A stretch of 64,000 nt of DNA from Escherichia phage BAU.Micro_ELP-22: sequence record OR699282.2, one strand, 5' to 3'. Both the position numbers and the translations under genes were made by a program. The stretch's first letter is position 1. Every line of letters starts with the position of its first letter. The notes beneath the pieces were generated by a model. It did not search any database, was not told where the DNA came from, and saw nothing but the letters and a program-made list of their open reading frames with translations. Positions 1 to 33,184 of the stretch are shown in pieces.

Positions 1-226
1 ATAATTTAACCAGTATTGATATCAGTGAGTTGTACGCGTATTATCAAAGTGCATTAGAGATGCATAAGTTATTTTTGAGTACAGATTTTGTTCTAAATTA
101 CAATTTTGAGGAATTTAAAAATTATAATTTAGTACAGAAATATGTAGTAGCAAAGTACATGTACAATCAAGGAATCAAAGGTTGCATCGAATTCAATACC
201 GTTCTTGTTTTAGTTGAGGTAATTTT

Positions 227-733
227 ATGCACCGCATGTCTGATTTAGAGTTCAGTTTAGATGCAGCATTTAAATTTGTTCACAAAATAGAAACAATATA
301 CAGTACATTATGTGCAATAACATCAGTATCAAAAGAGCTTGATGTTGGTGAAAGGTATCAGGTGTGGAATAATTCATTTTTTAATAAAGAACATTCTTCG
401 ACGGCATTTTATATTTTAGCATTTAATCCCAGCAATTGTTACCCAGAGAAGCATGAACGTTATCCGAATGACGACATGTGGTTTGAGTACAAAGAAGATT
501 CTGATATGTCGTCAATTGTAGTTCCTGATGATTTTAATGCACAAGATTTAACAGAAGAGTGGTGGTTCCAGCAGAATTTAGTACATGATGATATTGATTT
601 ATTTTTCTATATTGCATTTAAAATGCTTTATCACAACAATATAGTTAAAGAAAGTGTATCGTTTTCATGTCTATATATTGATGATTTGTACAATGAAATT
701 CAAATAAACATGCCCAGAACGCCTGTATCGTAA
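227..733 (+). CDS. hypothetical protein, FQ-motif paralog family
   Basis: 168-aa ORF; C-terminal motif EEWWFQQNLVHDD fits family consensus [DE][DE]x[YF]FQxS-[LIV]-[YH]-D. Confidence 0.6.
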   Translation: MHRMSDLEFSLDAAFKFVHKIETIYSTLCAITSVSKELDVGERYQVWNNSFFNKEHSSTAFYILAFNPSNCYPEKHERYPNDDMWFEYKEDSDMSSIVVPDDFNAQDLTEEWWFQQNLVHDDIDLFFYIAFKMLYHNNIVKESVSFSCLYIDDLYNEIQINMPRTPVS

Positions 734-785
734 GATATGGGCTTTTTTCGTTTTGGTATTGACATAGAAGACCAAAGCTGTTATC

Positions 786-1328
786 ATGTGTATTCATTTT
801 AAAGGAGAACATATAGTGAGTTTCATAATCCCAAGTACATACGAAGATGCATCAAGTGCAGTTCATAAGATTCATTATATTTTTAATTTAATTATTAGAT
901 CTGCAAAAATTAAAATGTATGCACCTCTTGTGACAAATAATCGAAATGAAGAAATTTTTATTAGCACAGACAAAATTATTTTTCCATATTTCAATGAAGA
1001 TAGATTGTGGTTCATACATTTAGCTGCATTACAAAAATATAAGATGTCAATTCGTAATAATTTGGTTATACCGTTATATCATCCCGATATTGGAGAGGAT
1101 GAGTATTTTCAGTACAGCACAGTACACCGCCATGAAGATATCTTTGCTGCTATGCTTATTGCTAAATTGAACACCGTTGATTTGGAGCAGTACAAATACA
1201 ATAATAAATCATGTAAGATCATAATCCCTGCATTCATAGCTCTTTATGATTATGTGGTGCATAACAAAAAAGATGATACATATGCTTTCAATGAAGAGTA
1301 TTTGAATTTTTTTAAGGAGAAAATATGA
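786..1328 (+). CDS. hypothetical protein, FQ-motif paralog family
   Basis: 180-aa ORF; motif GEDEYFQYSTVHRHED. Confidence 0.6.
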   Translation: MCIHFKGEHIVSFIIPSTYEDASSAVHKIHYIFNLIIRSAKIKMYAPLVTNNRNEEIFISTDKIIFPYFNEDRLWFIHLAALQKYKMSIRNNLVIPLYHPDIGEDEYFQYSTVHRHEDIFAAMLIAKLNTVDLEQYKYNNKSCKIIIPAFIALYDYVVHNKKDDTYAFNEEYLNFFKEKI

Positions 1329-1864
1329 GCAGTACAACAGTATCAAAAGTACAGAAAGCAATGTCATTCAATGAAATTGGTACATTTAAAGATAAGATCA
1401 TTGATTGCCTTGAATACATGATTTGTAGTAATATCGAAAGTATCGAGATATTTAACAAGACAAATCGCTCTTACCATATGATGTACATTGCAAACAATAA
1501 TGGTATCATTCCATTTATTTCGGATAGTACAATATGGTACGCATGTGATACGAAAAAATACACAGCAGGTTCGTATAGCTTAGGGTCACATACGGAATTG
1601 ATTATTCCTGAGCATTGTATGCAAGAAGAAGAATATTTTCAAATGCAATGTATACATTCACCATTAGTGTTGTTTAGTTTATATATTATACCTTATATCA
1701 CCAAATGTGTTCATGAGAATAAAGCTCCGTGGAATCATGAATTTGTATCGTTGAAGTTATTGTATAATGTATTAGTAGAATATTATGATTACAGGCACAA
1801 TGGTACAATCAGTGATGTATGGGAATTTGAATCGCTAAGGGTGAAAACATACACAGGTGAATGA
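1325..1864 (+). CDS. hypothetical protein, FQ-motif paralog family
   Basis: 179-aa ORF, ATGA start/stop overlap with upstream gene; motif QEEEYFQMQCIH. Confidence 0.6.
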   Translation: MSSTTVSKVQKAMSFNEIGTFKDKIIDCLEYMICSNIESIEIFNKTNRSYHMMYIANNNGIIPFISDSTIWYACDTKKYTAGSYSLGSHTELIIPEHCMQEEEYFQMQCIHSPLVLFSLYIIPYITKCVHENKAPWNHEFVSLKLLYNVLVEYYDYRHNGTISDVWEFESLRVKTYTGE

Positions 1865-2480
1865 TATGACCAGAATTAAAATGTATGATTTGATGCAGTA
1901 CAGTAAAATTGCCATTCCAGTGCTTAATAAAGTGCTGGATGCATTCATTGCCAAATACCCTGAGAATTCAGTGTTATGTATTCCATTTAGTGTTCCAGAT
2001 AAAGATGATATATTCCAAGTGAATGTCAGTACACGTGGTATTACATTACAGCAGAAATACATGGATACGGAATATTATGGAATAAAGTTGGATTCAGTAC
2101 AGGGTTCAAAATCAGCCTATGATTTTTTTGTTCCTAATAATATAGAGTCATGGGAAACAAACATTTCAAAGAAAGATGAAAATGATGTTCCTATTAGTGG
2201 TGTGTTCAACAATAAAGTTTTTTATTATTACGAAACCGACAAATTCCCTGAAGAGTTATATTACAATTCAGAAATGAATGAAGATGTAGATGCATTCATG
2301 TTTCAATTATCTTTAGTACATGATATCATTGATGTTCAAGAGTTAAGAGCAGAAATCAATTTAGCTAAAGAGTTATCGGACATGCTGCCACCGTTTAGTA
2401 TGCTTTTTTGTGAAGGTGGTTATTTTTCAAAAGAAGTGTTTGAACATTTCGTAGATGTTGTAAAAGGGTTGGATATATAG
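1857..2480 (+). CDS. hypothetical protein, FQ-motif paralog family
   Basis: 207-aa ORF; motif DAFMFQLSLVHDIID. Confidence 0.6.
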   Translation: MNDMTRIKMYDLMQYSKIAIPVLNKVLDAFIAKYPENSVLCIPFSVPDKDDIFQVNVSTRGITLQQKYMDTEYYGIKLDSVQGSKSAYDFFVPNNIESWETNISKKDENDVPISGVFNNKVFYYYETDKFPEELYYNSEMNEDVDAFMFQLSLVHDIIDVQELRAEINLAKELSDMLPPFSMLFCEGGYFSKEVFEHFVDVVKGLDI

Positions 2481-2481
2481 T

Positions 2482-2676
2482 ATGCTTACAGTTGATGTTA
2501 AACAAAAATACCGTAAGTTTGATTGGTTCACCGACAGTTTCCAGCTTGAATTATTACATTTGAATATCTGTGAAACATTATGTGCAGAAACACAAGATGA
2601 ATTTGATGATAGAGTGATGAACATAGTAATGCTTTCTTGCTTTAAACATTTTGGTTATTTTTTCGGACAGAATTGA
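2482..2676 (+). CDS. small hypothetical protein
   Basis: 64-aa ORF filling the gap between neighbouring genes, same strand. Confidence 0.35.
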   Translation: MLTVDVKQKYRKFDWFTDSFQLELLHLNICETLCAETQDEFDDRVMNIVMLSCFKHFGYFFGQN

Positions 2677-2684
2677 GGTAAAAA

Positions 2685-3203
2685 ATGCATCAACACAAGC
2701 ATCATTCATATGATTTTGCAATTAACATTATGAAGTTCATTCGAGCGTTGGAGGATGGGAAGCTTAGTCATAAGTACAGAAAAGAGGGTAACAATTGGTT
2801 CAGAAATGATGATGATGAGTTCAGAAGTCATAAGATTGTTTACAGCAATAATTACAGTGCCAATTACCTACAAGATGTAGTGATGTGTTTTGAATACGTG
2901 TTGCAGTTCAGGGGTTCAATCCAGGATGAGTTGATGGAGCACATGTACATCAGATACCTTCCAATGCTCAAAGATGAAAATGTATTATTAAATTCAATAT
3001 ACCAACGAGTTCGTGAAATTGAGTGCAGGGATATATTAGATACAGAAGAATCGTATTTCCAGCAATCCCTGATTTATGCACCTGATTTATTACAGGTACA
3101 TAATTTGTTTAATACATTACGTCAAAACATCAGTACAGACATATTTTTGTCATTATCGGATTATGATACATTTGTCAAAGATTTAGAGGAAATAGGTTTA
3201 TGA
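2685..3203 (+). CDS. hypothetical protein, FQ-motif paralog family
   Basis: 172-aa ORF; motif TEESYFQQSLIYAPD. Confidence 0.65.
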   Translation: MHQHKHHSYDFAINIMKFIRALEDGKLSHKYRKEGNNWFRNDDDEFRSHKIVYSNNYSANYLQDVVMCFEYVLQFRGSIQDELMEHMYIRYLPMLKDENVLLNSIYQRVREIECRDILDTEESYFQQSLIYAPDLLQVHNLFNTLRQNISTDIFLSLSDYDTFVKDLEEIGL

Positions 3204-3544
3204 GTCAATTTTCGGTTTATATAGTAAACGTCAGTAAAGATGGTAGTTTAATTGAATTTGATGTAGTTGATAACAATGATAATTCATATGGTATTAAGGT
3301 ACAGGACAATGATGTACAGTTCAGTACAAGGACAAATTTTGAGAATCCAGTCCAAGTTCCGAATTTCATAGAAGATGAAGCTGCACGATTCCAATACGAA
3401 ACGGCATATGACAATGTACATATGCATATTATTATGCAAACGAGTTTAGTTCAATTAGTTCCTTTGTTCAGACAAAATATATATGTACATGAAGTGTCGA
3501 TTAATGGCATTCAAAGTTCCGTTTTGTTCGGTACAAATATGTAA
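3200..3544 (+). CDS. hypothetical protein, degenerate FQ-motif
   Basis: 114-aa ORF; weak motif EAARFQYETAYDN. Confidence 0.5.
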   Translation: MSQFSVYIVNVSKDGSLIEFDVVDNNDNSYGIKVQDNDVQFSTRTNFENPVQVPNFIEDEAARFQYETAYDNVHMHIIMQTSLVQLVPLFRQNIYVHEVSINGIQSSVLFGTNM

Positions 3545-3554
3545 GGAAAGTACA

Positions 3555-4106
3555 ATGAGTTCAATGAGTTTATTAGATACATTAGAAAAAGACAGAAGTG
3601 CAATTAAGCGTTTAAAAGAGCAAGTACAAAAGATTGTATACAACGTTGATAAGTTTGAAGTCCCAGGAAGATTTGGTGATATTTCCCATACGGAGATCAA
3701 ATCCCTTAAGTCAGATTTGTTGATTAAAAATAAAAATGGGTTGATTTTAGTTTTGAGTTCAGATATGATGGGGGCAACACATAGTTATAATGCAGTATCG
3801 GTGCGTTCAGAGTGTGAAGGTATATATCTATCACAGGGTTTCAATAGCGAGACACAGGTTTGTTTTTGTGATGCAGTACATGACCCTATGAAGTTCACGA
3901 GAAGTGAAGCCCAAGCGTTATTAGAGCTATCAGACGAGAGTTTGTTTCAGTACAGTACAATGTATGACAATGATAAGCTTCGTTGTATGTACGCTGTAAA
4001 GCATTATACACAGGAGTTTTCTGGATTTGCATACCTTTTAGTTAGAACCAATACCAGATATATTGATATGTTAGAAGATTACATCGATAAAGTTGTTAAT
4101 GTATGA
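3555..4106 (+). CDS. hypothetical protein, FQ-motif paralog family
   Basis: ORF track start 3483 overlaps upstream gene; internal ATG 3555 preceded by AAGGAAAG chosen; motif SDESLFQYSTMYDND. Confidence 0.6.
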   Translation: MSSMSLLDTLEKDRSAIKRLKEQVQKIVYNVDKFEVPGRFGDISHTEIKSLKSDLLIKNKNGLILVLSSDMMGATHSYNAVSVRSECEGIYLSQGFNSETQVCFCDAVHDPMKFTRSEAQALLELSDESLFQYSTMYDNDKLRCMYAVKHYTQEFSGFAYLLVRTNTRYIDMLEDYIDKVVNV

Positions 4107-4296
4107 TGTATTATTATGGGATGGGATAATGCTGATGAAAGAGTTATTTGAAGATCAGTTCAATACATATGTGGATAATATTCTTTATTCCAGCCGTGCT
4201 AGTCAACGAGGAAATCGTGCTTACAATATAGATTACCTATTAGTGGTGCTGAGTTCACAGTACACCTACGCTGTACAGAGGACATATTATGAATAA
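4093..4296 (+). CDS. small hypothetical protein
   Basis: 67-aa ORF, overlapping start/stop chain with neighbours. Confidence 0.35.
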   Translation: MLMYDVLLWDGIMLMKELFEDQFNTYVDNILYSSRASQRGNRAYNIDYLLVVLSSQYTYAVQRTYYE

Positions 4297-4492
4297 TTTT
4301 AGAGATGTTGCTAAGGAGAAGTTCAAGTGCAGTTTAGATTACGGTTTAAATGATTTTCTTACATGCACAATGTACAGGAATGATGATTATGAGCAATCCG
4401 TAATTTCGTTGCACAGATATTTCGAAATAATTTACGCAAGATATCTTAGAAGGTTAGATGGGATAGGGGATTGGAATTATGATTACGTTTGA
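4289..4492 (+). CDS. small hypothetical protein
   Basis: 67-aa ORF in tandem chain. Confidence 0.35.
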   Translation: MNNFRDVAKEKFKCSLDYGLNDFLTCTMYRNDDYEQSVISLHRYFEIIYARYLRRLDGIGDWNYDYV

Positions 4493-4688
4493 AGAGCCGG
4501 AAGTGTTAAGTTCGCATAGTATTAAGGGTTTTGAATACATGATGGATTTGATTTTGAAGGATACATATTTGGTTCAGAGTGTAGATAATACGGTACACCG
4601 AGTATTGAATTTATACGAGATGACGAGTCGAAGGCTTTGTGCGATGAAAAGGATTGAAGAAATCAAGCTTTCTAGGCTGAATAAATAG
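4479..4688 (+). CDS. small hypothetical protein
   Basis: 69-aa ORF in tandem chain. Confidence 0.35.
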   Translation: MITFEEPEVLSSHSIKGFEYMMDLILKDTYLVQSVDNTVHRVLNLYEMTSRRLCAMKRIEEIKLSRLNK

Positions 4689-4884
4689 AGACGTTTCATT
4701 TTTACAGGCCGCAGGGGGTCAAAAAAATTTCCGCTGAAAAACATGCTAAGGTATATGTTTAATATAAAGTTTTATATTGTGTTTTTCAGAGTACAGTCCA
4801 TGTTTCCTGAAACAAAAAATACCCCGCCCCCGCAACGTGCTCCTTATATTGGAGTTTACCTTATTAATTATAGTAGAGATTAAG

Positions 4885-5262
4885 ATGGAAATAAAATATA
4901 ATGAATTTTGTGCAAGGACATGGATGTACACTGGTGAGTTAGTTACGCACTCTAACTTATACAAGGGTGATTTAAACTACGCTAGGGACAAGATTTTAAA
5001 GTACTGGAATGCTGACTTTTATTTGATGGATTTTAGTACTGGGTTTCATGGGATATCTATCGAGATGCCGGACTATACAGTACTTGATGATGCTGCACTG
5101 TTCCAGGAGGCATTAGTATTTGATAAGAAGTACATCTGTACATTAGAAGAGATGATTGAATTACAGCGTAGAATTAAATGTATTCACAGGGAATGTATAG
5201 ATATCTGGTGCAGTACTGGTGAGGCCGATTTCTGGAAATTTTTTAATCTAGGAGAAGAGTGA
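4885..5262 (+). CDS. hypothetical protein, FQ-motif family (LFQEALVFDKKY subgroup)
   Basis: In-frame ATG 4885 (MEIKYNEF) after a non-coding stretch; motif DDAALFQEALVFDKKYICTLEEMIELQ. Confidence 0.6.
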   Translation: MEIKYNEFCARTWMYTGELVTHSNLYKGDLNYARDKILKYWNADFYLMDFSTGFHGISIEMPDYTVLDDAALFQEALVFDKKYICTLEEMIELQRRIKCIHRECIDIWCSTGEADFWKFFNLGEE

Positions 5263-23128: not shown

Positions 23129-23489
23129 ACTAATAGAGGCGATCACTAAGGAGTCAAAATACCACAAAGGGATTCGTCTATATTTTATAGATATTGGTTC
23201 AATGGAAGGCATATACATTTATGGTTCACAATCTTTATCTTATGATGTAATGCCAAAAAAACATGTAAAAATCTTTTTAGGTTCAGATAAAAAAACTTTC
23301 TTGACAATTAATGATAAAAACGTTATTATGAATTCGTTGGGTCATGATAAGGTGGAAATTGATCTAAACACACTGGAGGATATTGATTTTTTTCAATACG
23401 AGTGTTTAGGTGTTGACTTACATGGCATTAGTAGCGATATGATAAAATCATTAATCAAATATTTCGAAGGTGTTCATAAATGTATCTAA
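23076..23489 (+). CDS. hypothetical protein, degenerate FQ-motif
   Basis: 137-aa ORF (start uncertain, overlaps upstream gene); motif LEDIDFFQYECLGVD. Confidence 0.45.
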   Translation: MHLSNLEKKETRLTTTDELIEAITKESKYHKGIRLYFIDIGSMEGIYIYGSQSLSYDVMPKKHVKIFLGSDKKTFLTINDKNVIMNSLGHDKVEIDLNTLEDIDFFQYECLGVDLHGISSDMIKSLIKYFEGVHKCI

Positions 23490-23977
23490 CTAAATCAATG
23501 AAAAATTCATTTGATAAAATCAAGAGTTGTCTTGATGGGGAAAATATTACAAGTGTTACACAAACTGCTGACCAAATTCAAAGCAGTTCAAGTGATTGTA
23601 CTGTTATTTTAGGTTTACATAGTCTACGTTTATCAATAGTAAATAATATTGACAACACTGCTATTGTAATCACACCATGCCATATTCAAAATGAGAATGG
23701 TGTATATCTTCATCACATGGGAACAGTATTTCATATTTTCAATACAAACGAAAACATTGTTAAGGAATACAAATCTCTTAATATTGATTCAGGTGAATTA
23801 TTTCAAATGAGTACTTTGTACTCATGTAATTTTACAGATACTTCATGTATTTTGCCATTTTTCTTGGAAATTATTAAGAAAATGGAAAATTTAAAACGTG
23901 AATACAATAAAGAAATGGTTCCTGAAGCTATATTAAATATTACTAATGCTATAGAGAAGTATAATGCAGTGACTTAA
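23480..23977 (+). CDS. hypothetical protein, FQ-motif paralog family
   Basis: 165-aa ORF; motif DSGELFQMSTLYSCNF. Confidence 0.6.
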   Translation: MYLTKSMKNSFDKIKSCLDGENITSVTQTADQIQSSSSDCTVILGLHSLRLSIVNNIDNTAIVITPCHIQNENGVYLHHMGTVFHIFNTNENIVKEYKSLNIDSGELFQMSTLYSCNFTDTSCILPFFLEIIKKMENLKREYNKEMVPEAILNITNAIEKYNAVT

Positions 23978-24019
23978 TAAAAACGCACATGGAGTGCATT
24001 AGAAGATCAAGGATAGATC

Positions 24020-24493
24020 ATGGAGATTAAAACTGTTGAAAATGGGAAAATTGATGACATTTTAGAGTTGGACGCATTCAAAGTTCATGATATAATGTTT
24101 AATGTGAAGGACATTATTCAATGTCTATTTTTGTGTAGCAAGACAATGCATGATTTTTTTCACAACCCAAATACTAACGTTTTTATACTAACAATCAGTA
24201 CTGAAAACTCGTTTATCATGGGTATGCCTATGAGTACAAATGAACAATATATTGATTGTGTTATTCGTAATAACGATAGTATTACGCCACAATCTGAAGT
24301 ACGTAAAAAGAAAAACACCTACACAATCAAAGATGATAAAATTATGATGTGCTGTAGTAAAGGGTTTATATTAGATAATTTTATCATCAAAGACAGTTAT
24401 CACGACTTTAAAGTGTCTGAAAATCAATCCAATGTAGTTCTTTATGCGAGTGACATAGAAAGTCTAACAGTTAAAGATCCCAGTTTGGAGTAA
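24020..24493 (+). CDS. hypothetical protein
   Basis: 157-aa ORF. Confidence 0.5.
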   Translation: MEIKTVENGKIDDILELDAFKVHDIMFNVKDIIQCLFLCSKTMHDFFHNPNTNVFILTISTENSFIMGMPMSTNEQYIDCVIRNNDSITPQSEVRKKKNTYTIKDDKIMMCCSKGFILDNFIIKDSYHDFKVSENQSNVVLYASDIESLTVKDPSLE

Positions 24494-24495
24494 GT

Positions 24496-24627
24496 ATGGC
24501 TAAGAAAGTAAACAATTTCGTACAGAAACACATGAATGAGTTTAACAAGCCTCAGACACATGTTGATCGTAAGAAAGAAATGAAAAATGGTAAAGTAAAA
24601 CACAAGTCGAGATTTATTCTCGACTAA
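24496..24627 (+). CDS. small basic hypothetical protein
   Basis: 43-aa ORF (MAKKVNNFVQKHMNEF...) not in the >=60-aa track; ends inside terminator hairpin. Confidence 0.3.
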   Translation: MAKKVNNFVQKHMNEFNKPQTHVDRKKEMKNGKVKHKSRFILD

Positions 24628-24634
24628 TTTTTTG
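24605..24634 (+). terminator. rho-independent terminator
   Basis: AGTCGAG-atttatt-CTCGACT hairpin followed by AATTTTTT. Confidence 0.65.
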
Positions 24635-24656
24635 TCTAAATTTATGGAGATTTTAT

Positions 24657-25508
24657 ATGTTAGATAGCACTGACTTTCGCAATTTCAAAAAGTATTCAGT
24701 TCTTGAACATATAAACGAATTTCTAAATTCTACTACACCATTTGGCATCAGTGCGTTCGACTCATACGATGGGTATAGAATCTTCTCATGCAATGACTTT
24801 CAAATTTCCGTCAAAAAAGGTTTTACAAAAGAAGTTGCAATTCGTGATGTAGTACTGTATAGCGATTCTTCCATTTCTTACTGTCATGATGCGAACAATT
24901 TTGAATCTCTTTCAACACCTAATTGTTCATACTACAAATCCCATGACACGATGATGTACAAAGAACAACATATCAATGGTGTTTCGTTCTATAAAACGAA
25001 CAGTGATAAGTCATATACATCGAGAGATGATTTTGGAAAGTACACATGTACTATGCACGCGGATAATGAAAAAACAAGCTACACACATTCATTCGAGTCC
25101 AAATTCAAAGAGAGTGACTTTTCAAATATCACTATTCAAGAACAAGTTACAGAAGAAGGTGTTGTATATCGTAGTACTGCATTCTTTCGCATGAAAGATA
25201 TTGTCACTGGTAGACCAATGATGTACAATATTGACATATATATGAAAGGTGATATATCCGAAGTAGTGATTAGTACTGGTTATCGTGAAAAATATACAGT
25301 TACGATGGAATCACCAGATGCATCACTAGTTCACCTCTTTAACAATTTATACACATTCCAATTCGAACTTAGTTTCGAACCCAATGAATATCAAATATTC
25401 GATGTATTAAAAAGTAATATTATTAATAAGTTAGAATATTACTACAAGTTAGGTGGGAAAATGAGCATAGTTAATACTATGTTACATAACATAAAAGAAA
25501 CATTATAA
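24657..25508 (+). CDS. hypothetical protein
   Basis: 283-aa ORF with GGAGA RBS; no recognisable motif. Confidence 0.6.
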   Translation: MLDSTDFRNFKKYSVLEHINEFLNSTTPFGISAFDSYDGYRIFSCNDFQISVKKGFTKEVAIRDVVLYSDSSISYCHDANNFESLSTPNCSYYKSHDTMMYKEQHINGVSFYKTNSDKSYTSRDDFGKYTCTMHADNEKTSYTHSFESKFKESDFSNITIQEQVTEEGVVYRSTAFFRMKDIVTGRPMMYNIDIYMKGDISEVVISTGYREKYTVTMESPDASLVHLFNNLYTFQFELSFEPNEYQIFDVLKSNIINKLEYYYKLGGKMSIVNTMLHNIKETL

Positions 25509-25523
25509 ATTGGAGGATTTGGG

Positions 25524-25817
25524 ATGGATACTAAATTCAAAGTTATATTTAAAACTAAGCCGTATATTCCGCATACAGCAGAACGTTTTATACCACATGG
25601 TGCAGAGGAAATTATTCACCATGATGGTACAAAGTTATATCTAGTGCCATGTTCATATGAACGTGCAGTAGAAATGTTACTCATGAATTCTAAATTATGT
25701 ACAAACAAGTACATTAGCTACTTATACAATGAACATATTTTAGATTTTAATGATGAAAATATGTTTATTCTAGCAATTGAAGATTTTAATAATTGGTACA
25801 ACATTATTAAAATCTGA
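25524..25817 (+). CDS. hypothetical protein
   Basis: 97-aa ORF with GGAGGA RBS. Confidence 0.55.
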   Translation: MDTKFKVIFKTKPYIPHTAERFIPHGAEEIIHHDGTKLYLVPCSYERAVEMLLMNSKLCTNKYISYLYNEHILDFNDENMFILAIEDFNNWYNIIKI

Positions 25818-27530: not shown

Positions 27531-27560
27531 GACATACCATAAGTTTATGATATAATGTAA

Positions 27561-27594
27561 GGTGACAGCAGAATATGTTGTCGCCTTTTTTTTT
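27561..27594 (+). terminator. putative rho-independent terminator
   Basis: GGTGAC...GTCGCC hairpin (one G-U pair) followed by T10; preceded by TGATATAAT at 27548-27556. Confidence 0.5.
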
Positions 27595-28132
27595 AATCCT
27601 GAAAGGTTCCATATGGAAATGATTAAAGCCTAATCCACTCGAAAAGTAGAGGGTAGATGAGTAGTCCTTTCAGTACGAACAGCAAATGAAACCCGTTAGA
27701 TGATGGCATAGTTTGAACCACTCACGGCAATGCGGCTGTATAAAGAACTCCAATAGGATAAAGAGAGTTCCTCGATAGACATATAAGGATCGCACCTTAC
27801 CAATTATCTAAGGGAGATTTCATGAGAAATTTGCGGTCGTAATTTATACAAAATAGTTGCGTCCAAAATTCGTGAAATCAAATACAAGTACTGGTCATAT
27901 GGTATTTGTATTATGTGTCGGGATGTTTAAGACCGACGACCGTTGCTACAAGAACCGCGATAGAGAGAAACAGAGCAACCCGCTTTCGTCTCGTAAGAGA
28001 ATTCGTGATATGAACTATGTGAAGGCCACCAGCGTCAAACTTTTTTGTTCTTTCCCCTGCGGGGGGATGAAATATGCTCAAGCAAACCCCGTCAATATTA
28101 ATTAAAAGAAAATAGTACTTGTAGAATTAGAC

Positions 28133-28753
28133 ATGCGTAGCATGGTAATTCTACTGATGTTGATGGAATCAACGTCACGTATATTCATTGATGTTTCCAT
28201 AGGAATAATGATGGCATTTATTAGAAAACAAAAAACTTTTACCTATAAGACTTTGGATTTTGTTGATTGTGAAAACCAATTACAAGATGAAGATAACTTT
28301 ACAGGATTTGTTGTTATTAAAGAAAAAGGATGCATTTCGTATATAAAGGAATTACAGAACGGCATTGAAGTTACTTCAGTCAAATTACTTCCTACACAAA
28401 AACCAACAATATTAAAAGCACAGTATGGTAATTATTTCGAGGAAAGATATAGTAATAATTTAATAAGTGTTAAGGCTCATATTATAAAAGGAGAACTAGA
28501 AGGAGAATATAGAAAATACAACCCACAAGGAAAATGTGTTTGGGTTAAATACTTCAATTCAGGAAATGATGTAACATCTGAAATAATTGAGTTTTTAGGT
28601 TTAACATGTACCCCTGAAACTCTTCATGATTACAAATTTAATACTGAAGAAGAGTTTAATCTGATGATGCGTTATGGTTCACATTTTAAATTTTTATATG
28701 AATATAACATTGACAGTAGTACTTTTGATAAGATAGTACAGAACTGTCTCTAA
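28133..28753 (+). CDS. hypothetical protein
   Basis: 206-aa ORF; true start may be the internal ATG at 28208 or 28211 after AGGAATA. Confidence 0.5.
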   Translation: MRSMVILLMLMESTSRIFIDVSIGIMMAFIRKQKTFTYKTLDFVDCENQLQDEDNFTGFVVIKEKGCISYIKELQNGIEVTSVKLLPTQKPTILKAQYGNYFEERYSNNLISVKAHIIKGELEGEYRKYNPQGKCVWVKYFNSGNDVTSEIIEFLGLTCTPETLHDYKFNTEEEFNLMMRYGSHFKFLYEYNIDSSTFDKIVQNCL

Positions 28754-28769
28754 CAAAAGGAATTATATA

Positions 28770-29291
28770 ATGTCGAAGAAGGATGCTTCGAAAAAACATT
28801 CAGTACATTTTAGTACTGGTAAAGATAACTGGACAACTCCAAAAGATTTCTTTGAAGAGTTAGATGAGTTATGGGGATTTACGCTTGATGCTGCTTGTGT
28901 TGATGAGACTGCATTATGTGAGAATTATTTTACACCAAATGATGATTCTCTTTCACAGGATTGGGGAAAGAATATAGTTTGGTTGAACCCTCCATATAGT
29001 GATTTGAAAACATGGTTATCTAAAGCAGTAGATGCGTATAATAAAGGAGCAACTGTATTAATTCTTGTACCATCAAGAACGGATACTATAGCCTTTCAGG
29101 ATTATGCTGCGAAAGTTTGTGATTGTATTTGTTTTATTAAGGGAAGGTTACGATTTGGTATCCCAGAAGAACCAGAGAAGAAAACAGATTCAGCACCATT
29201 TCCTTCGTGTCTGATAGTACTGGATAAGTACTTAACCACTGCTAAAATCAATTATCTTAAATCTCTTGGATTGGTGATGAAGAATTTATGA
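28770..29291 (+). CDS. DNA N6-adenine methyltransferase (phage Dam family)
   Basis: WTTPKDFFEELDELWGFTLDAACVDE, catalytic NPPY (VWLNPPYSD), LVPSRTDT and PFPS motifs typical of the phage N6A-MTase family. Confidence 0.8.
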   Translation: MSKKDASKKHSVHFSTGKDNWTTPKDFFEELDELWGFTLDAACVDETALCENYFTPNDDSLSQDWGKNIVWLNPPYSDLKTWLSKAVDAYNKGATVLILVPSRTDTIAFQDYAAKVCDCICFIKGRLRFGIPEEPEKKTDSAPFPSCLIVLDKYLTTAKINYLKSLGLVMKNL

Positions 29292-29821
29292 AAGAAACAT
29301 GCGTATTAACTTTTGGACGTGTTAATCCCGTACATCGTGGACATGGTTTAGTTTTTGAAAAGGCCAAAACATTACAAGAACAGTACAATGCTGATTTAAA
29401 AATATATCTAAGCACCAGTACTGACAATATAAAAAACCCACTCCCACCTGAACTAAAAATGTATTATACAGAGGGATTTTATCCTTCAGTGCAAGAGAAC
29501 ATCTACACAGAAGACAATCTGTTTGATATAATGAGAGAACTGGATGGAAAGTACTTAGATGTTCTTTTCATATGTGGTTCTGACCGTATTGATTCTTTTC
29601 AAAAAACTCTTGACATGTACAATGGTAAGTTGTATAATTTTTGTAGTATAAAAGTAATTCAAGCAGGTATTGACCGTAATGTAAGTCAATATAGCTCAAC
29701 ACAAATGCGTAACTTCGCAAAAAATGAAGATTTTGATAGTTTTCGTGAGTTTTTACCTGGAAATGACGAGAACTTAAAAATACAATTATTTGAAGACGTT
29801 ATAAAATACATGAGGAAATAA
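29288..29821 (+). CDS. nucleotidyltransferase, NMN/NaMN adenylyltransferase-like
   Basis: N-terminal HxGH motif (FGRVNPVHRGHG) and C-terminal SSTxxR-type motif (YSSTQMRNF) of the cytidylyl/adenylyltransferase fold; start overlaps MTase stop. Confidence 0.55.
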   Translation: MKETCVLTFGRVNPVHRGHGLVFEKAKTLQEQYNADLKIYLSTSTDNIKNPLPPELKMYYTEGFYPSVQENIYTEDNLFDIMRELDGKYLDVLFICGSDRIDSFQKTLDMYNGKLYNFCSIKVIQAGIDRNVSQYSSTQMRNFAKNEDFDSFREFLPGNDENLKIQLFEDVIKYMRK

Positions 29822-29823
29822 TT

Positions 29824-30117
29824 ATGTCAGTACTGTTCAAAACCAATCCAGTACTTTGGGATCAAAATGAGCAATCAGGATTTCGTTCCATCCATGTTGA
29901 ATACAAAGGTAATACTGTAGTTGCAATTATTGCTAACAAAACTCTAGGAAACTGGACTGCACAGGTTGTTCCTATGGGATATTCTTACACATCTGATGAG
30001 GTTCAATTCCTGGCTGAACTATATCGTCAAGTGCCGTTTATCATTAATGTACTAGAAGGTAATGATACATTATCACATGCAGATGTGATTAATTTTCTTG
30101 GAAACTTGCATGTGTGA
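29824..30117 (+). CDS. hypothetical protein
   Basis: 97-aa ORF. Confidence 0.5.
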   Translation: MSVLFKTNPVLWDQNEQSGFRSIHVEYKGNTVVAIIANKTLGNWTAQVVPMGYSYTSDEVQFLAELYRQVPFIINVLEGNDTLSHADVINFLGNLHV

Positions 30118-30397
30118 TGAAATAAATCTTACAGGATATTTTTTACAAGAATCAATGATTAAATTTAGTGATAAATTTTCAGTACTGGATGGTATCGAAA
30201 TGTGGCATGTCAAACCACTGTTCCACACTTTCAGTAAAGAGCACAAAATGTTATTGACTGAAGCGAGTAAATCAAATAACATATGTGAAATCAAAATTGG
30301 TGTAAATGTCTATAAAGGGATGGTTATCTTTTTTGACAATAACAGCAACTACTTTTATATTGTTAAGGAGCATTACGTTGACAAATACAAATACTAA
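30098..30397 (+). CDS. hypothetical protein
   Basis: 99-aa ORF. Confidence 0.45.
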   Translation: METCMCDEINLTGYFLQESMIKFSDKFSVLDGIEMWHVKPLFHTFSKEHKMLLTEASKSNNICEIKIGVNVYKGMVIFFDNNSNYFYIVKEHYVDKYKY

Positions 30398-30992
30398 TAC
30401 ATACTTCCGTTATCTTCGCTTAGGTCTTTCCCTACGTCCGATCCGTGGAAAGTGCGATTCACTCGCTGACCTTGACTATGCATATGCATTACATCATGAA
30501 GGTGTACAGTATGTATTGGGTGATTATGGTGAATTTGAAGAAACAAATGACAGTACTGGAATTAATGCTGGTGTAGAAAATCTTAACAACATTGCTAACA
30601 GTTCTCGCCATGACATTGTGTTACAGATTCAAAACTTTATTGAGCAGCACACAGGTAAACGTGTTTGGTGCTATGTCGGTACTGATGCACAAATGTCAAT
30701 TTCATTCGGTAACGATGAAGGATATGTTGCACAGCTTATTATGGATTTTGAATCTGAAGAGAAGTTTTTAGAATTCAAAGAAAAGATTATTCAGTCACTT
30801 GTTGATATGGGTATCCCCGAAGATAAAATGCCAGAAGTTCAAAACATTGATGAATTTGTTTTGATTCCATCTGATGAGAAATATGATGCAATGTTTACTG
30901 CCCTTAATATTCCAGGAGTTATTGTGGAGTACTTTGATGATGGTGATGATAGTATCTATATCGATCTAGATGACGATGACGACGATGAATAA
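30378..30992 (+). CDS. hypothetical acidic protein
   Basis: TTG start 30378 preceded by AAGGAG (7-nt spacing) chosen over track start 30306; poly-acidic C-terminus DLDDDDDDE. Confidence 0.5.
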   Translation: MTNTNTNTYFRYLRLGLSLRPIRGKCDSLADLDYAYALHHEGVQYVLGDYGEFEETNDSTGINAGVENLNNIANSSRHDIVLQIQNFIEQHTGKRVWCYVGTDAQMSISFGNDEGYVAQLIMDFESEEKFLEFKEKIIQSLVDMGIPEDKMPEVQNIDEFVLIPSDEKYDAMFTALNIPGVIVEYFDDGDDSIYIDLDDDDDDE

Positions 30993-30999
30993 TGTACAT

Positions 31000-31026
31000 A
31001 GCCCGACATAAGTTCGGGCTATTTTT
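31000..31026 (+). terminator. rho-independent terminator
   Basis: AGCCCGA-cataagt-TCGGGCT hairpin followed by ATTTTT. Confidence 0.7.
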
Positions 31027-31038
31027 GTAAGGGGATAT

Positions 31039-31314
31039 ATGAATTATAAAGTTCTACAATATACATACAGTGTTTTGTTTGATTTACATCACAATGGAAG
31101 ATATCTCAATACAATACGAGAAAACACATTCACTCATACTATCTGGATTAATCACTTAATAATGATACGTGAATATTTTGTTAATAGTGAGATAATCATT
31201 CGTGGTAAAAAACAGAAGATAGAACAAGTTAATAGTTTTGGTGGTAAATTAGTACTATCATTTATAGATAGTAATACTAATGAAAGATATAGTATAGATT
31301 TGGTGGACATATGA
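31039..31314 (+). CDS. hypothetical protein, small paralog family 2
   Basis: 91-aa ORF; N-term LQYTYSVLFDL pattern shared with the next six genes. Confidence 0.6.
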   Translation: MNYKVLQYTYSVLFDLHHNGRYLNTIRENTFTHTIWINHLIMIREYFVNSEIIIRGKKQKIEQVNSFGGKLVLSFIDSNTNERYSIDLVDI

Positions 31315-31577
31315 ATTATAAAGATTTCCTACTAACATACAAGATTATTCGAGATTTAGCACACGACAATGATAGCCCTAGTCTAGAAGACACATGCACT
31401 GAAATGATTCATACAATTCGTGGTAAGATTAAAAAAAAATTCAGTACTGTTATTATTGGTGATGACCATGCAGAATTTTCTGATATAATCATTAGACGTG
31501 ATGGTAAAGTTGAGGTTCAGTACTACACTGATTTTGGATTTACCAGTATTCCGTTGGAGATATTCCCTTGGGATTAA
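31311..31577 (+). CDS. hypothetical protein, small paralog family 2
   Basis: 88-aa ORF; LLTYKIIRDL N-term. Confidence 0.6.
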   Translation: MNYKDFLLTYKIIRDLAHDNDSPSLEDTCTEMIHTIRGKIKKKFSTVIIGDDHAEFSDIIIRRDGKVEVQYYTDFGFTSIPLEIFPWD

Positions 31578-31879
31578 ATTTAAATGATATACAATTCACT
31601 TATAAGATCCTATATGATTTGTATGATGTATACCTTGTTAGTAACAAAATAGGTTCACATAACCCATACAAAGAACAACCATTTATTGATTTATATATTG
31701 AGTACTTAGATTCAGTAGGTGAATATATAAAAAAGAATTACAGTACTTTTATCGATGGAAATGATAAATTCGATTTCTATGGTGTGCAATCATATAATGG
31801 TATAATCCATGTTCAATTTCAGGAAATAACCGATAGGGGATTTATCGAGATTAAAGTTGTGAAGTTGGTGAATTTATAA
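31568..31879 (+). CDS. hypothetical protein, small paralog family 2
   Basis: TTG start per ORF track; IQFTYKILYDL N-term. Confidence 0.5.
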   Translation: MGLNLNDIQFTYKILYDLYDVYLVSNKIGSHNPYKEQPFIDLYIEYLDSVGEYIKKNYSTFIDGNDKFDFYGVQSYNGIIHVQFQEITDRGFIEIKVVKLVNL

Positions 31880-31889
31880 GAGGTTACAT

Positions 31890-32201
31890 ATGTTATTAAA
31901 TGATATACAATTCACATACAAATTTTTGTATATCCAATACGCTACGGTTGATGCTGGAGAATATCTCTACAGTGAAATCTATCGTTCGGTATGGATAAAG
32001 TTTTTGGATGAATTACATGATTATTACCATGATTTGTGTATAGTTCGTGATAATAAAATATACAAATTCCGCGATATTGTTAGTCATAGCGGTAAGCTAC
32101 GATTGGAATTAAGTACTGATAGTGATGTTGATTGGATTGGTGTAAATTTACTGGAATTGAAGAATGAAAAACAACTTAAAGGAAATACAAGTATTTTATA
32201 A
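31890..32201 (+). CDS. hypothetical protein, small paralog family 2
   Basis: 103-aa ORF; IQFTYKFLY N-term. Confidence 0.6.
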   Translation: MLLNDIQFTYKFLYIQYATVDAGEYLYSEIYRSVWIKFLDELHDYYHDLCIVRDNKIYKFRDIVSHSGKLRLELSTDSDVDWIGVNLLELKNEKQLKGNTSIL

Positions 32202-32448
32202 ATTCTTATACTTATCATATGTAAAAGATGAGTACTATGAAAGTGTGTATTATTTTTTATGGCAACATTACCGTACTATAGTAAGAGATTTATATATAGG
32301 AAAATCTATCATATCCAATGGTGAAAAATGTATCTGTACGGATGTAGTTAGTTTTAATGGTTCTTTAACATTGTGTTTCAGATGCGATAATAATAGTGGA
32401 TCATTTTCATTAAACGTATATCAGTTAGAAGGAATAAATTTTGAATAA
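32164..32448 (+). CDS. hypothetical protein, small paralog family 2
   Basis: 94-aa ORF; IQVFYKFLYL N-term. Confidence 0.55.
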   Translation: MKNNLKEIQVFYKFLYLSYVKDEYYESVYYFLWQHYRTIVRDLYIGKSIISNGEKCICTDVVSFNGSLTLCFRCDNNSGSFSLNVYQLEGINFE

Positions 32449-32641
32449 ATGTCCATATTGTAACAGTACTCAATTAGCTCGTTTCCGTTTAGATTCAGAC
32501 TGGGCGACTGGTGCTGGTGATTTCTTCCCTATTAATGATGATGCAGAATACACCGAAGAACAGCACAAAGATTTTGATAAATCATGGCGACCTGACATTG
32601 AGTGCATTTATTGCCTTAATTGTGAGCGTGTTCATGACTAA
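32441..32641 (+). CDS. small zinc-ribbon protein
   Basis: 66-aa ORF with two CxxC pairs (CPYCNS ... CIYCLNC). Confidence 0.5.
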   Translation: MNKCPYCNSTQLARFRLDSDWATGAGDFFPINDDAEYTEEQHKDFDKSWRPDIECIYCLNCERVHD

Positions 32642-32897
32642 AGCTGAACTAATAGTTCATACATATAAAATGATATCAAGTACTGAGTTATCATATAGTG
32701 CAGATAATCCAGTACTGGATTATTTTGTTGAATTATTGAAAGAGCATTATATTGGTAAATCACTGATTCTTAATAATATTAATTTCACGGTAAAGGATGT
32801 AGCACCTGGAAAAAACGTACTAATAGTATGTGTTACTTCATCTGATAACCCAGTATACCCAATATCAATAATTTTTGAGATATTAGGAGATTTATGA
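32634..32897 (+). CDS. hypothetical protein, small paralog family 2
   Basis: In-frame ATG 32634 (ATGACTAA overlap with upstream stop) preferred over track start 32511. Confidence 0.5.
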   Translation: MTKAELIVHTYKMISSTELSYSADNPVLDYFVELLKEHYIGKSLILNNINFTVKDVAPGKNVLIVCVTSSDNPVYPISIIFEILGDL

Positions 32898-33184
32898 ATA
32901 TCATTTTAATGCAGAAAACATATGCTATATTGGTGAAAGATTATTCCATTACTTTCGATTCACAAGAAAGTGCTCTACATAACCTATACAAAAACGTAAC
33001 ACAAGAATACAGAAATATGTTTTCTGACTTAGTAGTAGGAAGGTATTTCAGTACTAGAAAATACCCAAAACTTCAAATAGTTGATGTTTCTTTTTATTTC
33101 AATGGTCATATTACTATTCATAGTTTAGACCAAGATTCAACAACGTACTTAAACTTTTCATTTGATGAGGTAACATTTTTATGA
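32894..33184 (+). CDS. hypothetical protein, small paralog family 2
   Basis: 96-aa ORF. Confidence 0.55.
   Translation: MNIILMQKTYAILVKDYSITFDSQESALHNLYKNVTQEYRNMFSDLVVGRYFSTRKYPKLQIVDVSFYFNGHITIHSLDQDSTTYLNFSFDEVTFL

Follow-up and report, generated by a model that had tools for sequence, protein, structure and literature searches.

Jumbo phages of the RaK2-like group carry a small methyltransferase gene next to a gene of the phage 'cytidyltransferase' family, and the pair has been annotated in 121Q (gp417 'DNA methyltransferase' / gp418 'cytidyltransferase') and RaK2 ('dam: methylase | putative cytitidyltransferase'), as well as in PBECO4, slurp01, CBB (CBB_72/CBB_73), and dozens more records. 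We analyzed the orthologous pair in a 64,000-nt stretch of Escherichia phage BAU.Micro_ELP-22 (the window, whose numbering is used throughout), where a methyltransferase gene (MTase; 28770..29291, plus strand, 173 amino acids [aa]) runs into a nucleotidyltransferase gene (NTase; 29288..29821, plus strand, 177 aa). An earlier interpretation made from the letters of the window alone (the sequence-only reading) had placed both open reading frames (ORFs) at exactly these positions and had noted the NPPY and HxGH motifs, the overlap of the MTase stop with the NTase start, and an excess of AGTACT, all of which were borne out. It had also presented the pairing as an arrangement that it did not recognize; the annotated records show that the gene pair is already known, and the present locus adds nothing to public annotation. 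We consider it probable that the two are ordinary, already annotated early genes of Asteriusvirus, co-inherited within a long conserved block and co-expressed from one unit. The AGTACT motif, whose excess is strong, conserved, and apparently unreported, is more interesting than the gene pair.

The 3.5-kb stretch around the pair showed 99.4% identity to Escherichia phage vB_Eco_slurp01 (slurp01), 96–97% identity to 121Q, PBECO4, JP4, and other Asteriusvirus jumbo myoviruses, and 60–80% identity to related phages of Klebsiella, Salmonella, Erwinia, Yersinia, Serratia, Pectobacterium, and Xanthomonas; 32 records spanned at least 80% of the query, and the annotation there reads 'DNA methyltransferase | cytidyltransferase'. 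The MTase protein matched its slurp01 and JP4 counterparts at 100% identity and those of RaK2 and 121Q at 63–95%. Judged by these identities, the source phage is a RaK2-like jumbo coliphage (Asteriusvirus). The orthologous pairs in GenBank (RaK2, 121Q, PBECO4, slurp01, and CBB) resembled the window in both protein families, gene order, strand, and flanking genes, and NTase was found directly 3' of MTase in 121Q and other Asteriusvirus phages, the Alcyoneusvirus phages Muenster, RaK2, and K64-1, Munch-like phages, Serratia phage BF, and CBB/GAP32. It was the junction that differed. In the window it reads AATTTATGAAAG, in which the NTase ATG and the MTase TGA have 4 nt in common (ATGA, 29288..29291, plus strand); Muenster likewise showed a 4-nt overlap and the Munch-like Salmonella phages an 8-nt overlap, whereas CBB and BF have a short spacer in place of the overlap (21–39 nt as annotated), and four genes separate MTase from NTase in Xanthomonas phage XaC1. 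NTase occurred without MTase beside it in the PA5oct-like phage Deifobo and in cyanophages, and among the 8 IMG/VR loci retrieved from the close NTase alignment, none carried MTase in its flanks except 121Q itself.

Gene order in the conserved block extended to the hypothetical gene before MTase, the 97-aa gene after NTase, and, farther along, the genes for RNA ligase 1, polynucleotide kinase, and a Ser/Thr phosphatase; because these flanking genes are retained in order too, the MTase–NTase adjacency is part of a general synteny. Over the 19.5 kb around the pair, as annotated in 121Q, 17 of the 43 same-strand neighbor pairs (40%) overlap, six of them by exactly 4 nt. Thus, since the block is larger than the pair, the overlap is not conserved, and 40% of nearby pairs overlap, we explained the pairing by co-expression and by a gene order that was inherited, and not as a demonstrated two-enzyme system. 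Translational coupling, as put forward in the sequence-only reading, was retained insofar as the genes are contiguous and probably co-translated, but the overlap is routine and has been lost in BF, CBB, and XaC1.

MTase matched the Pfam family PF05869 'Dam' (E 6e-32; 111.1 bits, cut-off 28.1; profile positions 7–149 of 169), to which it belongs, and phrog_111 (E 1.9e-56). Against the NCBIfam equivalog TIGR01712 (phage_N6A_met) it scored 92.8 bits, below the cut-off of 97.05, and this near miss argues for a related subfamily. By tblastn, 2156 phage records contained a homologue, among them records of T1-like and Stx phages. Across 45 homologues, W21, T23, P24, F37, D40, N73, P75, Y76, R103, T104, G125, R126, and an APFPS stretch were invariant, and P74 was conserved in at least 90%; NPPY (residues 73–76, codons 28986..28997, plus strand), within the context LNPPYSD, conforms to the catalytic motif IV pattern (D/N)PP(Y/F). 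The segment F37-T-L-D40 (codons 28878..28889, plus strand) is the putative equivalent of motif I, and D40 would be the acidic residue of a region presumed, from the alignment, to bind S-adenosylmethionine (AdoMet). The AlphaFold model (mean predicted local distance difference test [pLDDT] 86, residues 1–17 disordered) consisted of a bare Rossmann-type core without a separate target-recognition domain, and the enzyme is an orphan, with no partner endonuclease.

In family, size (~170 aa), NPPY motif, orphan state, and lack of a target-recognition domain, MTase resembles the small phage PF05869/TIGR01712 Dams (T1-like, Stx-converting, and HP1-type), with ~30–36% identity to the T1-like and Stx-phage members. 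The PF05869 members of T1, HP1, and VT-2 are DNA GATC methylases. The orthodox Dams of the EcoDam and T4 Dam type are GATC-specific alpha-class enzymes with a DNA-binding hairpin/target-recognition domain, and MTase does not belong to them. The earlier label of a Dam-family N6-adenine methyltransferase is therefore right in the Pfam sense, by PF05869 membership and NPPY, but not in the EcoDam/T4 Dam sense. The non-specific adenine methylases of the Hia5/Hin1523 type were rejected as relatives, being a different family with DPPY, FxGxG, and a divergent target-recognition domain (PMC3299994); the Phytophthora DAMT papers that cite PF05869 concern enzymes of a different domain family and were uninformative. 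Phage Sharanji has been reported to carry a second 'methyltransferase' at a distance of six genes from its Dam gene (PMC11895373), and the window ORFs at 23480–25817 contained no methyltransferase domain. Direct sequence searches of the Protein Data Bank gave no meaningful match for MTase and none for NTase.

The best structural match of MTase, and its nearest solved fold, was PCIF1 (CAPAM), the eukaryotic cap-specific mRNA m6Am methyltransferase. MTase shares the fold of the PCIF1 methyltransferase domain at 15% identity; PCIF1 has extra domains (482 aa in the solved chain), whereas MTase is a bare catalytic domain in which the accessory cap/RNA-binding domains of PCIF1 were not found. Iyer et al. 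2021 (PMC7824862) described unusually small jumbo-phage 'DAMs', with AMM43637.1 as an example, for which PCIF1 is the nearest relative and RNA a possible substrate. AMM43637.1 is CBB_72, an MTase orthologue that adjoins the CBB_73 'cytitidyltransferase', and the structural match thus independently reproduces their remark. Kinship with PCIF1 is what common ancestry predicts and does not decide the substrate of MTase. The homologues in phages Lily (of Paenibacillus) and XC1 (of Acinetobacter) are surrounded by helicase, 5-methylcytosine (m5C) methylase, exonuclease, and RuvC genes, a DNA metabolism context that is the one indirect pointer to adenine methylation in DNA.

NTase matched phrog_3041 (E 2.8e-58, residues 2–176) and phrog_395 (E 2.4e-25), both labeled 'cytidyltransferase'. 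The sequence-only reading had named placement in an unrelated family by hidden Markov model search as a result that would refute its assignment; the search returned phrog_3041 instead, and the AlphaFold model (pLDDT 88.7) showed the canonical HxGH fold, which is like that of class I aminoacyl-tRNA synthetases. Against Pfam PF01467 CTP_transf_like NTase scored 17.3 bits, under the cut-off of 21, and the family was placed in the PF01467 superfamily because 27 of 70 longer members pass this profile at E ≤ 1e-4. The NadD equivalog TIGR00482 gave 20 bits (cut-off 112.45), with no single stretch passing alone. The nucleotide-binding HxGH motif (H16-R-G-H19, codons 29333..29344, plus strand) lies in the N-terminal region GRVNPVHRGHG; H16, G18, and H19 were invariant in close homologues, and H19 was invariant family-wide. 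The C-terminal region YSSTQMR contains the SxTxxR motif (S136-S-T-Q-M-R141, codons 29693..29710, plus strand), the second nucleotide-binding motif of enzymes of the nicotinamide mononucleotide adenylyltransferase (NMNAT) and phosphopantetheine adenylyltransferase (PPAT) type; R141 was invariant, S136 was conserved in at least 90%, and the motif aligns with ISSTxIR of NadD and PPAT. NTase thus combines, on an HxGH Rossmann-like fold, both motifs expected of adenylyltransferases acting on nicotinamide mononucleotide or nicotinic acid mononucleotide (NMN/NaMN).

By Foldseek, NadD/NMNAT and PPAT were equally distant from the NTase model (template modeling score 0.55–0.63, 12–19% identity), and a profile of 44 family sequences retrieved Staphylococcus aureus NadD (2e-6), PPATs (6e-6 to 3e-5), and an archaeal NMNAT (2e-4), with GCT only at 0.43. 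The true cytidylyltransferases (GCT/TagD, CCT, and ECT) were not the closest relatives, lying farther away than NadD/NMNAT and PPAT. Judged by motifs, profiles, and model, NTase is probably an adenylyltransferase, and because it most resembles such enzymes, the name 'cytidyltransferase' is a carry-over of the Pfam label. Since NMNAT and PPAT are at equal distance by fold and by profile, the two are inseparable as its identity; relative to NadD/NadM/NadR and PPAT (CoaD), NTase stays under every curated threshold and has conserved motifs of its own family, KNPL, GSDR, and YNGxxYNF. The earlier term NMNAT-like was upheld for the HxGH fold and for nearest solved relatives that include NMN/NaMN adenylyltransferases, with the qualification that PPAT is equally near and that the NadD equivalog is far below threshold.

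A word-indexed search recovered close RaK2-like relatives only, and an exhaustive search was needed for the whole family, which comprised 2740 cluster representatives at E ≤ 1e-3. Among the best 150 representatives, 84 were at least 380 aa long (380–1427 aa), with the domain usually N-terminal. Their extensions are mostly without a Pfam domain and some are basic-rich; DUF5824 was present in 12 of 70, and occasional fusions involved a Zeta_toxin/AAA_33 P-loop kinase, DUF6267, or Hint (Hint/intein), none of which was decisive as a functional clue. The family occurred in 565 phage-genome records, ~460 of them from T4-like cyanophages. The cyanomyovirus 'cytitidyltransferase' (T4-GC_534; phrog_3041/395) has the NTase domain in common at 32–39% identity, and differs in its length of 385–510 aa, its uncharacterized C-terminal extensions, its tandem paralogues (385 and 510 aa), and the lack of a methyltransferase nearby; a literature search for its function found nothing relevant. 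NTase homologues are mislabeled in GenBank as 'ribonucleotide reductase A / NrdB' (121Q, Ecwhy_1, S-MbCM25, and 7t3), and further labels include the misspelt 'cytitidyltransferase', 'phosphopantetheine adenylyltransferase', 'bifunctional NadR-like protein', and 'DNA helicase'.

AGTACT occurred 197 times in the window, where ~17–21 sites would be expected; dinucleotide-preserving shuffles gave 16.75 ± 4.05, and none of them reached the observed number (0 of 100; maximum 27); five of the sites lie within the two genes. The excess over base composition grew stepwise, from 2.7-fold for GTAC to 4.9-fold for AGTAC and 9.2-fold for AGTACT. In a composite genome (slurp01 plus the window), there were 903 AGTACT sites where 118 would be expected; CAGTACTG, an 8-bp palindrome, reached 192 copies compared with an expectation of 3.4 (~56-fold), and the flanks of AGTACT favored C at -1 (0.43) and G at +6 (0.47). 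The sites were distributed over all codon phases (76/42/62) and occurred at similar density in non-coding DNA, which places the signal at the DNA level. Relative to Ecwhy_1 (84% identity), 116 of 154 AGTACT sites (75%) were kept, whereas composition-matched hexamers were kept at 48% of their 2861 occurrences, and this difference indicates purifying selection. A 9–13-fold excess was present near the orthologous locus in every sampled MTase lineage (Asteriusvirus, Muenster, Munch, XaC1, BF, and CBB), and the excess is common to RaK2-like phages of six host genera. It was absent from the fetched stretches, 2.5–4 kb on each side of NTase, at nine loci that have NTase but no MTase within those stretches (Deifobo, a cyanophage, and seven metagenomic viral contigs), and likewise from the surroundings of the Lily and XC1 MTase homologues (40–44% identity), the closest ones outside the RaK2-like phages. 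Because all of the positive lineages fall in one clade, the correlation between MTase and AGTACT amounts to a single phylogenetic event. A literature search for over-representation of AGTACT in phages found no description of it; the RaK2 paper (PMC3622015) reports that the DNA resists methylation-sensitive enzymes and nothing further in this regard.

The motif further resembles an operator site for a protein. Copies of a 14-bp palindrome, ATTCAGTACTGAAT, are present both in tandem 60-bp repeats and in the spacers of sigma-70-like promoters, and a non-coding stretch of slurp01 contains tandem 60-bp repeats, each with ATTCAGTACTGA. At 76.3–76.6 and 78.0–78.2 kb of slurp01, within a 2-kb non-coding stretch, tandem 60-bp and ~53-bp repeats each carry (ATT)CAGTACTGA(AT); these repeats have the appearance of operators or iterons arrayed for binding by a dimeric protein. 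Other domains were free of AGTACT. Positions 1–4999 of the window lacked AGTACT altogether but had 27 copies of AGTACA, compared with 1.8 expected, and these fell in every codon phase; SP27 and PBECO4 likewise showed AGTACA without AGTACT in the corresponding domain. In slurp01 this AGTACT-free domain covers 8 kb (~104–112 kb) and carried 4–8 copies of AGTACA per kb, confined to the plus strand and often in the form CAGTACAG, and a 5-kb mirror domain at ~96–101 kb carried only the reverse complement TGTACT; both polar domains lie within plus-strand genes and are conserved in SP27 and PBECO4. A replication origin between these domains was rejected, as the cumulative GC skew of the slurp01 composite tracks gene orientation and shows no switch near 96–112 kb. 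GATC was depleted in the window (85 vs. 190 expected; 0.45), and more than 20 G+C-containing 6-bp palindromes, including GGATCC, CTGCAG, GAGCTC, CCATGG, GGTACC, and CGTACG, were absent, with ~5 occurrences expected for most of them and ~1 for the all-G+C ones. These counts indicate a broad avoidance of restriction sites beside the AGTACT excess.

Two terminator-like hairpins on the plus strand are the probable, predicted ends of one transcription unit holding the pair: upstream, 27559..27597 (hairpin 27559–27587, a 12-pair stem followed by TTTTTTT), and downstream, 30998..31032 (hairpin 30998–31022, also with a T-run). The putative unit would comprise six genes (28133–28753, MTase, NTase, 29824–30117, 30098–30397, and 30306–30992), an operon structure drawn from consensus scans alone. 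The upstream hairpin begins a non-coding gap of ~600 nt (27531–28132) located 5' of the gene that precedes MTase; the equivalent gap in 121Q is 612 nt, JP4 annotates there only tiny minus-strand ORFs, and an Rfam scan of the gap gave no match. A perfect sigma-70 consensus (TTGACA, 17 nt, TATAAT; 12/12) lies inside the NTase gene at 29610–29638 and might be an internal promoter for the genes downstream, in a region where the overall number of promoter-like matches was not above chance. Just past the downstream terminator, at least seven paralogous genes of ~90–100 aa each stand in tandem (31039–33184), with common N-terminal patterns such as DIQFTYK.LYDLY. Outside the window, at 199.1–200.9 kb of slurp01, NUDIX, glutaredoxin, and Macro-domain genes cluster beside a gene for a CCA-adding enzyme; this cluster is a possible counter-defense module related to ADP-ribose or nicotinamide adenine dinucleotide (NAD), separate from NTase.

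In the account that we favor, MTase would be a minimal enzyme without a partner, an AdoMet-dependent N6-adenine methyltransferase from a family (PF05869) that is widespread in phages, and it would most likely methylate the phage's own DNA soon after infection, either against restriction or as a mark of phage DNA. NTase, a single-domain member of a large phage-specific family, would, by its fold and motifs, most likely move AMP from ATP to a small phosphorylated acceptor resembling NMN/NaMN or phosphopantetheine. The ATGA overlap would serve co-translation, as in a large fraction of the gene pairs of this genome, and is by itself no sign of one shared pathway; co-expression of the pair is likely, and a functional partnership of the two enzymes is possible but not indicated by the data. 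Several points weigh against this account. The adjacency has been kept across phages of Escherichia, Klebsiella, Salmonella, Serratia, and Pectobacterium though the proteins are only 33–67% identical, and it could reflect selection for co-expressed partners rather than inertia. The substrates given for both enzymes are predictions. The best structural match of MTase is an RNA cap methyltransferase, and RNA methylation has been suggested for precisely this jumbo-phage family (Iyer et al. 2021; PMC7824862). Finally, the strong AGTACT signal beside MTase in every sampled lineage hints at a more specific role.

The last point leads to a different proposal, namely that MTase acts on (C)AGTACT(G), methylating the adenine of its GTAC core, that the word is kept dense as an epigenetic self-mark, which might protect the phage DNA or let other phage proteins recognize it, and that NTase is a mere neighbor. 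The chlorovirus enzyme M.CviQI methylates GTm6AC and therefore provides a precedent for adenine methylation of the GTAC core. The size of the excess, its DNA-level character, the purifying selection on the sites, and the depletion of GATC, the classical target of small phage Dams, all fit this proposal, as does the complete co-occurrence in the sample, in which each MTase lineage and none of the nine NTase-only loci showed the excess. The positive lineages, however, are all of one clade, and the negative loci were viewed only over their short flanks; the reading of 6–8 bp is not to be expected of a 173-aa protein that has no target-recognition domain; the Lily and XC1 homologues reside in DNA without AGTACT excess; and the occurrence of ATTCAGTACTGAAT in tandem repeats and promoter spacers fits a dimeric DNA-binding protein equally well. 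Other methyltransferases are also encoded by these phages, a HaeIII-like one in slurp01 and the products of three methylation genes in CBB (PMC5259590). We therefore regard the proposal as unlikely. Its fuller form, in which the ~900 (C)AGTACT(G) copies per genome are marked with N6-methyladenine by the PCIF1-like MTase, the self-mark is read by other phage factors, and the AGTACT-free CAGTACAG domains stay unmarked or hemi-marked, is slightly less likely again; NTase might or might not take part in such self-marking.

A more plausible departure from the favored account, though still a doubtful one, concerns NTase, which may be a genuine NMN/NaMN adenylyltransferase that boosts or restores NAD+ in infection, in response to demand or to NAD+-depleting defenses, and is unrelated to MTase. 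The two nucleotide-binding motifs and the nearest solved relatives agree with such an activity, but PPAT scores are essentially equal, the NadD equivalog score is far too low, and KNPL and YNGxxYNF have no assignable NMN-binding counterpart. No NAD+ salvage gene (Nampt, Nudix fusion, RNK, or PnuC) was found in the window neighborhood of NTase, and the slurp01 annotation contains no Nampt, NadR, or PnuC name. In addition, CBB has CBB_73 plus the separately recognized NMNATs CBB_113 and CBB_361 and the Nampt CBB_115 (PMC5259590), from which CBB_73 lies apart; this argues that NTase is a distinct family and not simply the phage NAD-salvage NMNAT. Much the least probable, and to be entertained only as a speculation, is a single RNA 5'-end pathway in which NTase makes an adenine dinucleotide of the NAD or dephospho-CoA type as the initiating nucleotide and the PCIF1-like MTase methylates the cap-proximal adenosine. 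The resemblance to PCIF1 gives rise to this idea, but it is expected from common ancestry and silent on substrate; MTase is without the extra domains of PCIF1 (173 vs. 482 aa), the PF05869 members of T1, HP1, and Stx phages methylate DNA, and homologues elsewhere sit in DNA replication modules. The proposed functional coupling of the two enzymes is unsupported.

For the annotation of these phages, the results indicate that database labels for NTase are unreliable and that their errors have been propagated. NTase belongs to a family of at least 2740 cluster representatives, present in most cyanomyoviruses, and the MTase family is a phage relative of PCIF1. A link between MTase and AGTACT is a reasonable hypothesis of low probability, drawn from a clade-level co-occurrence that assigns no specificity. 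Should MTase prove to explain AGTACT, phages would have a new way of marking themselves; otherwise, the motif suggests that a DNA-binding protein is at work.

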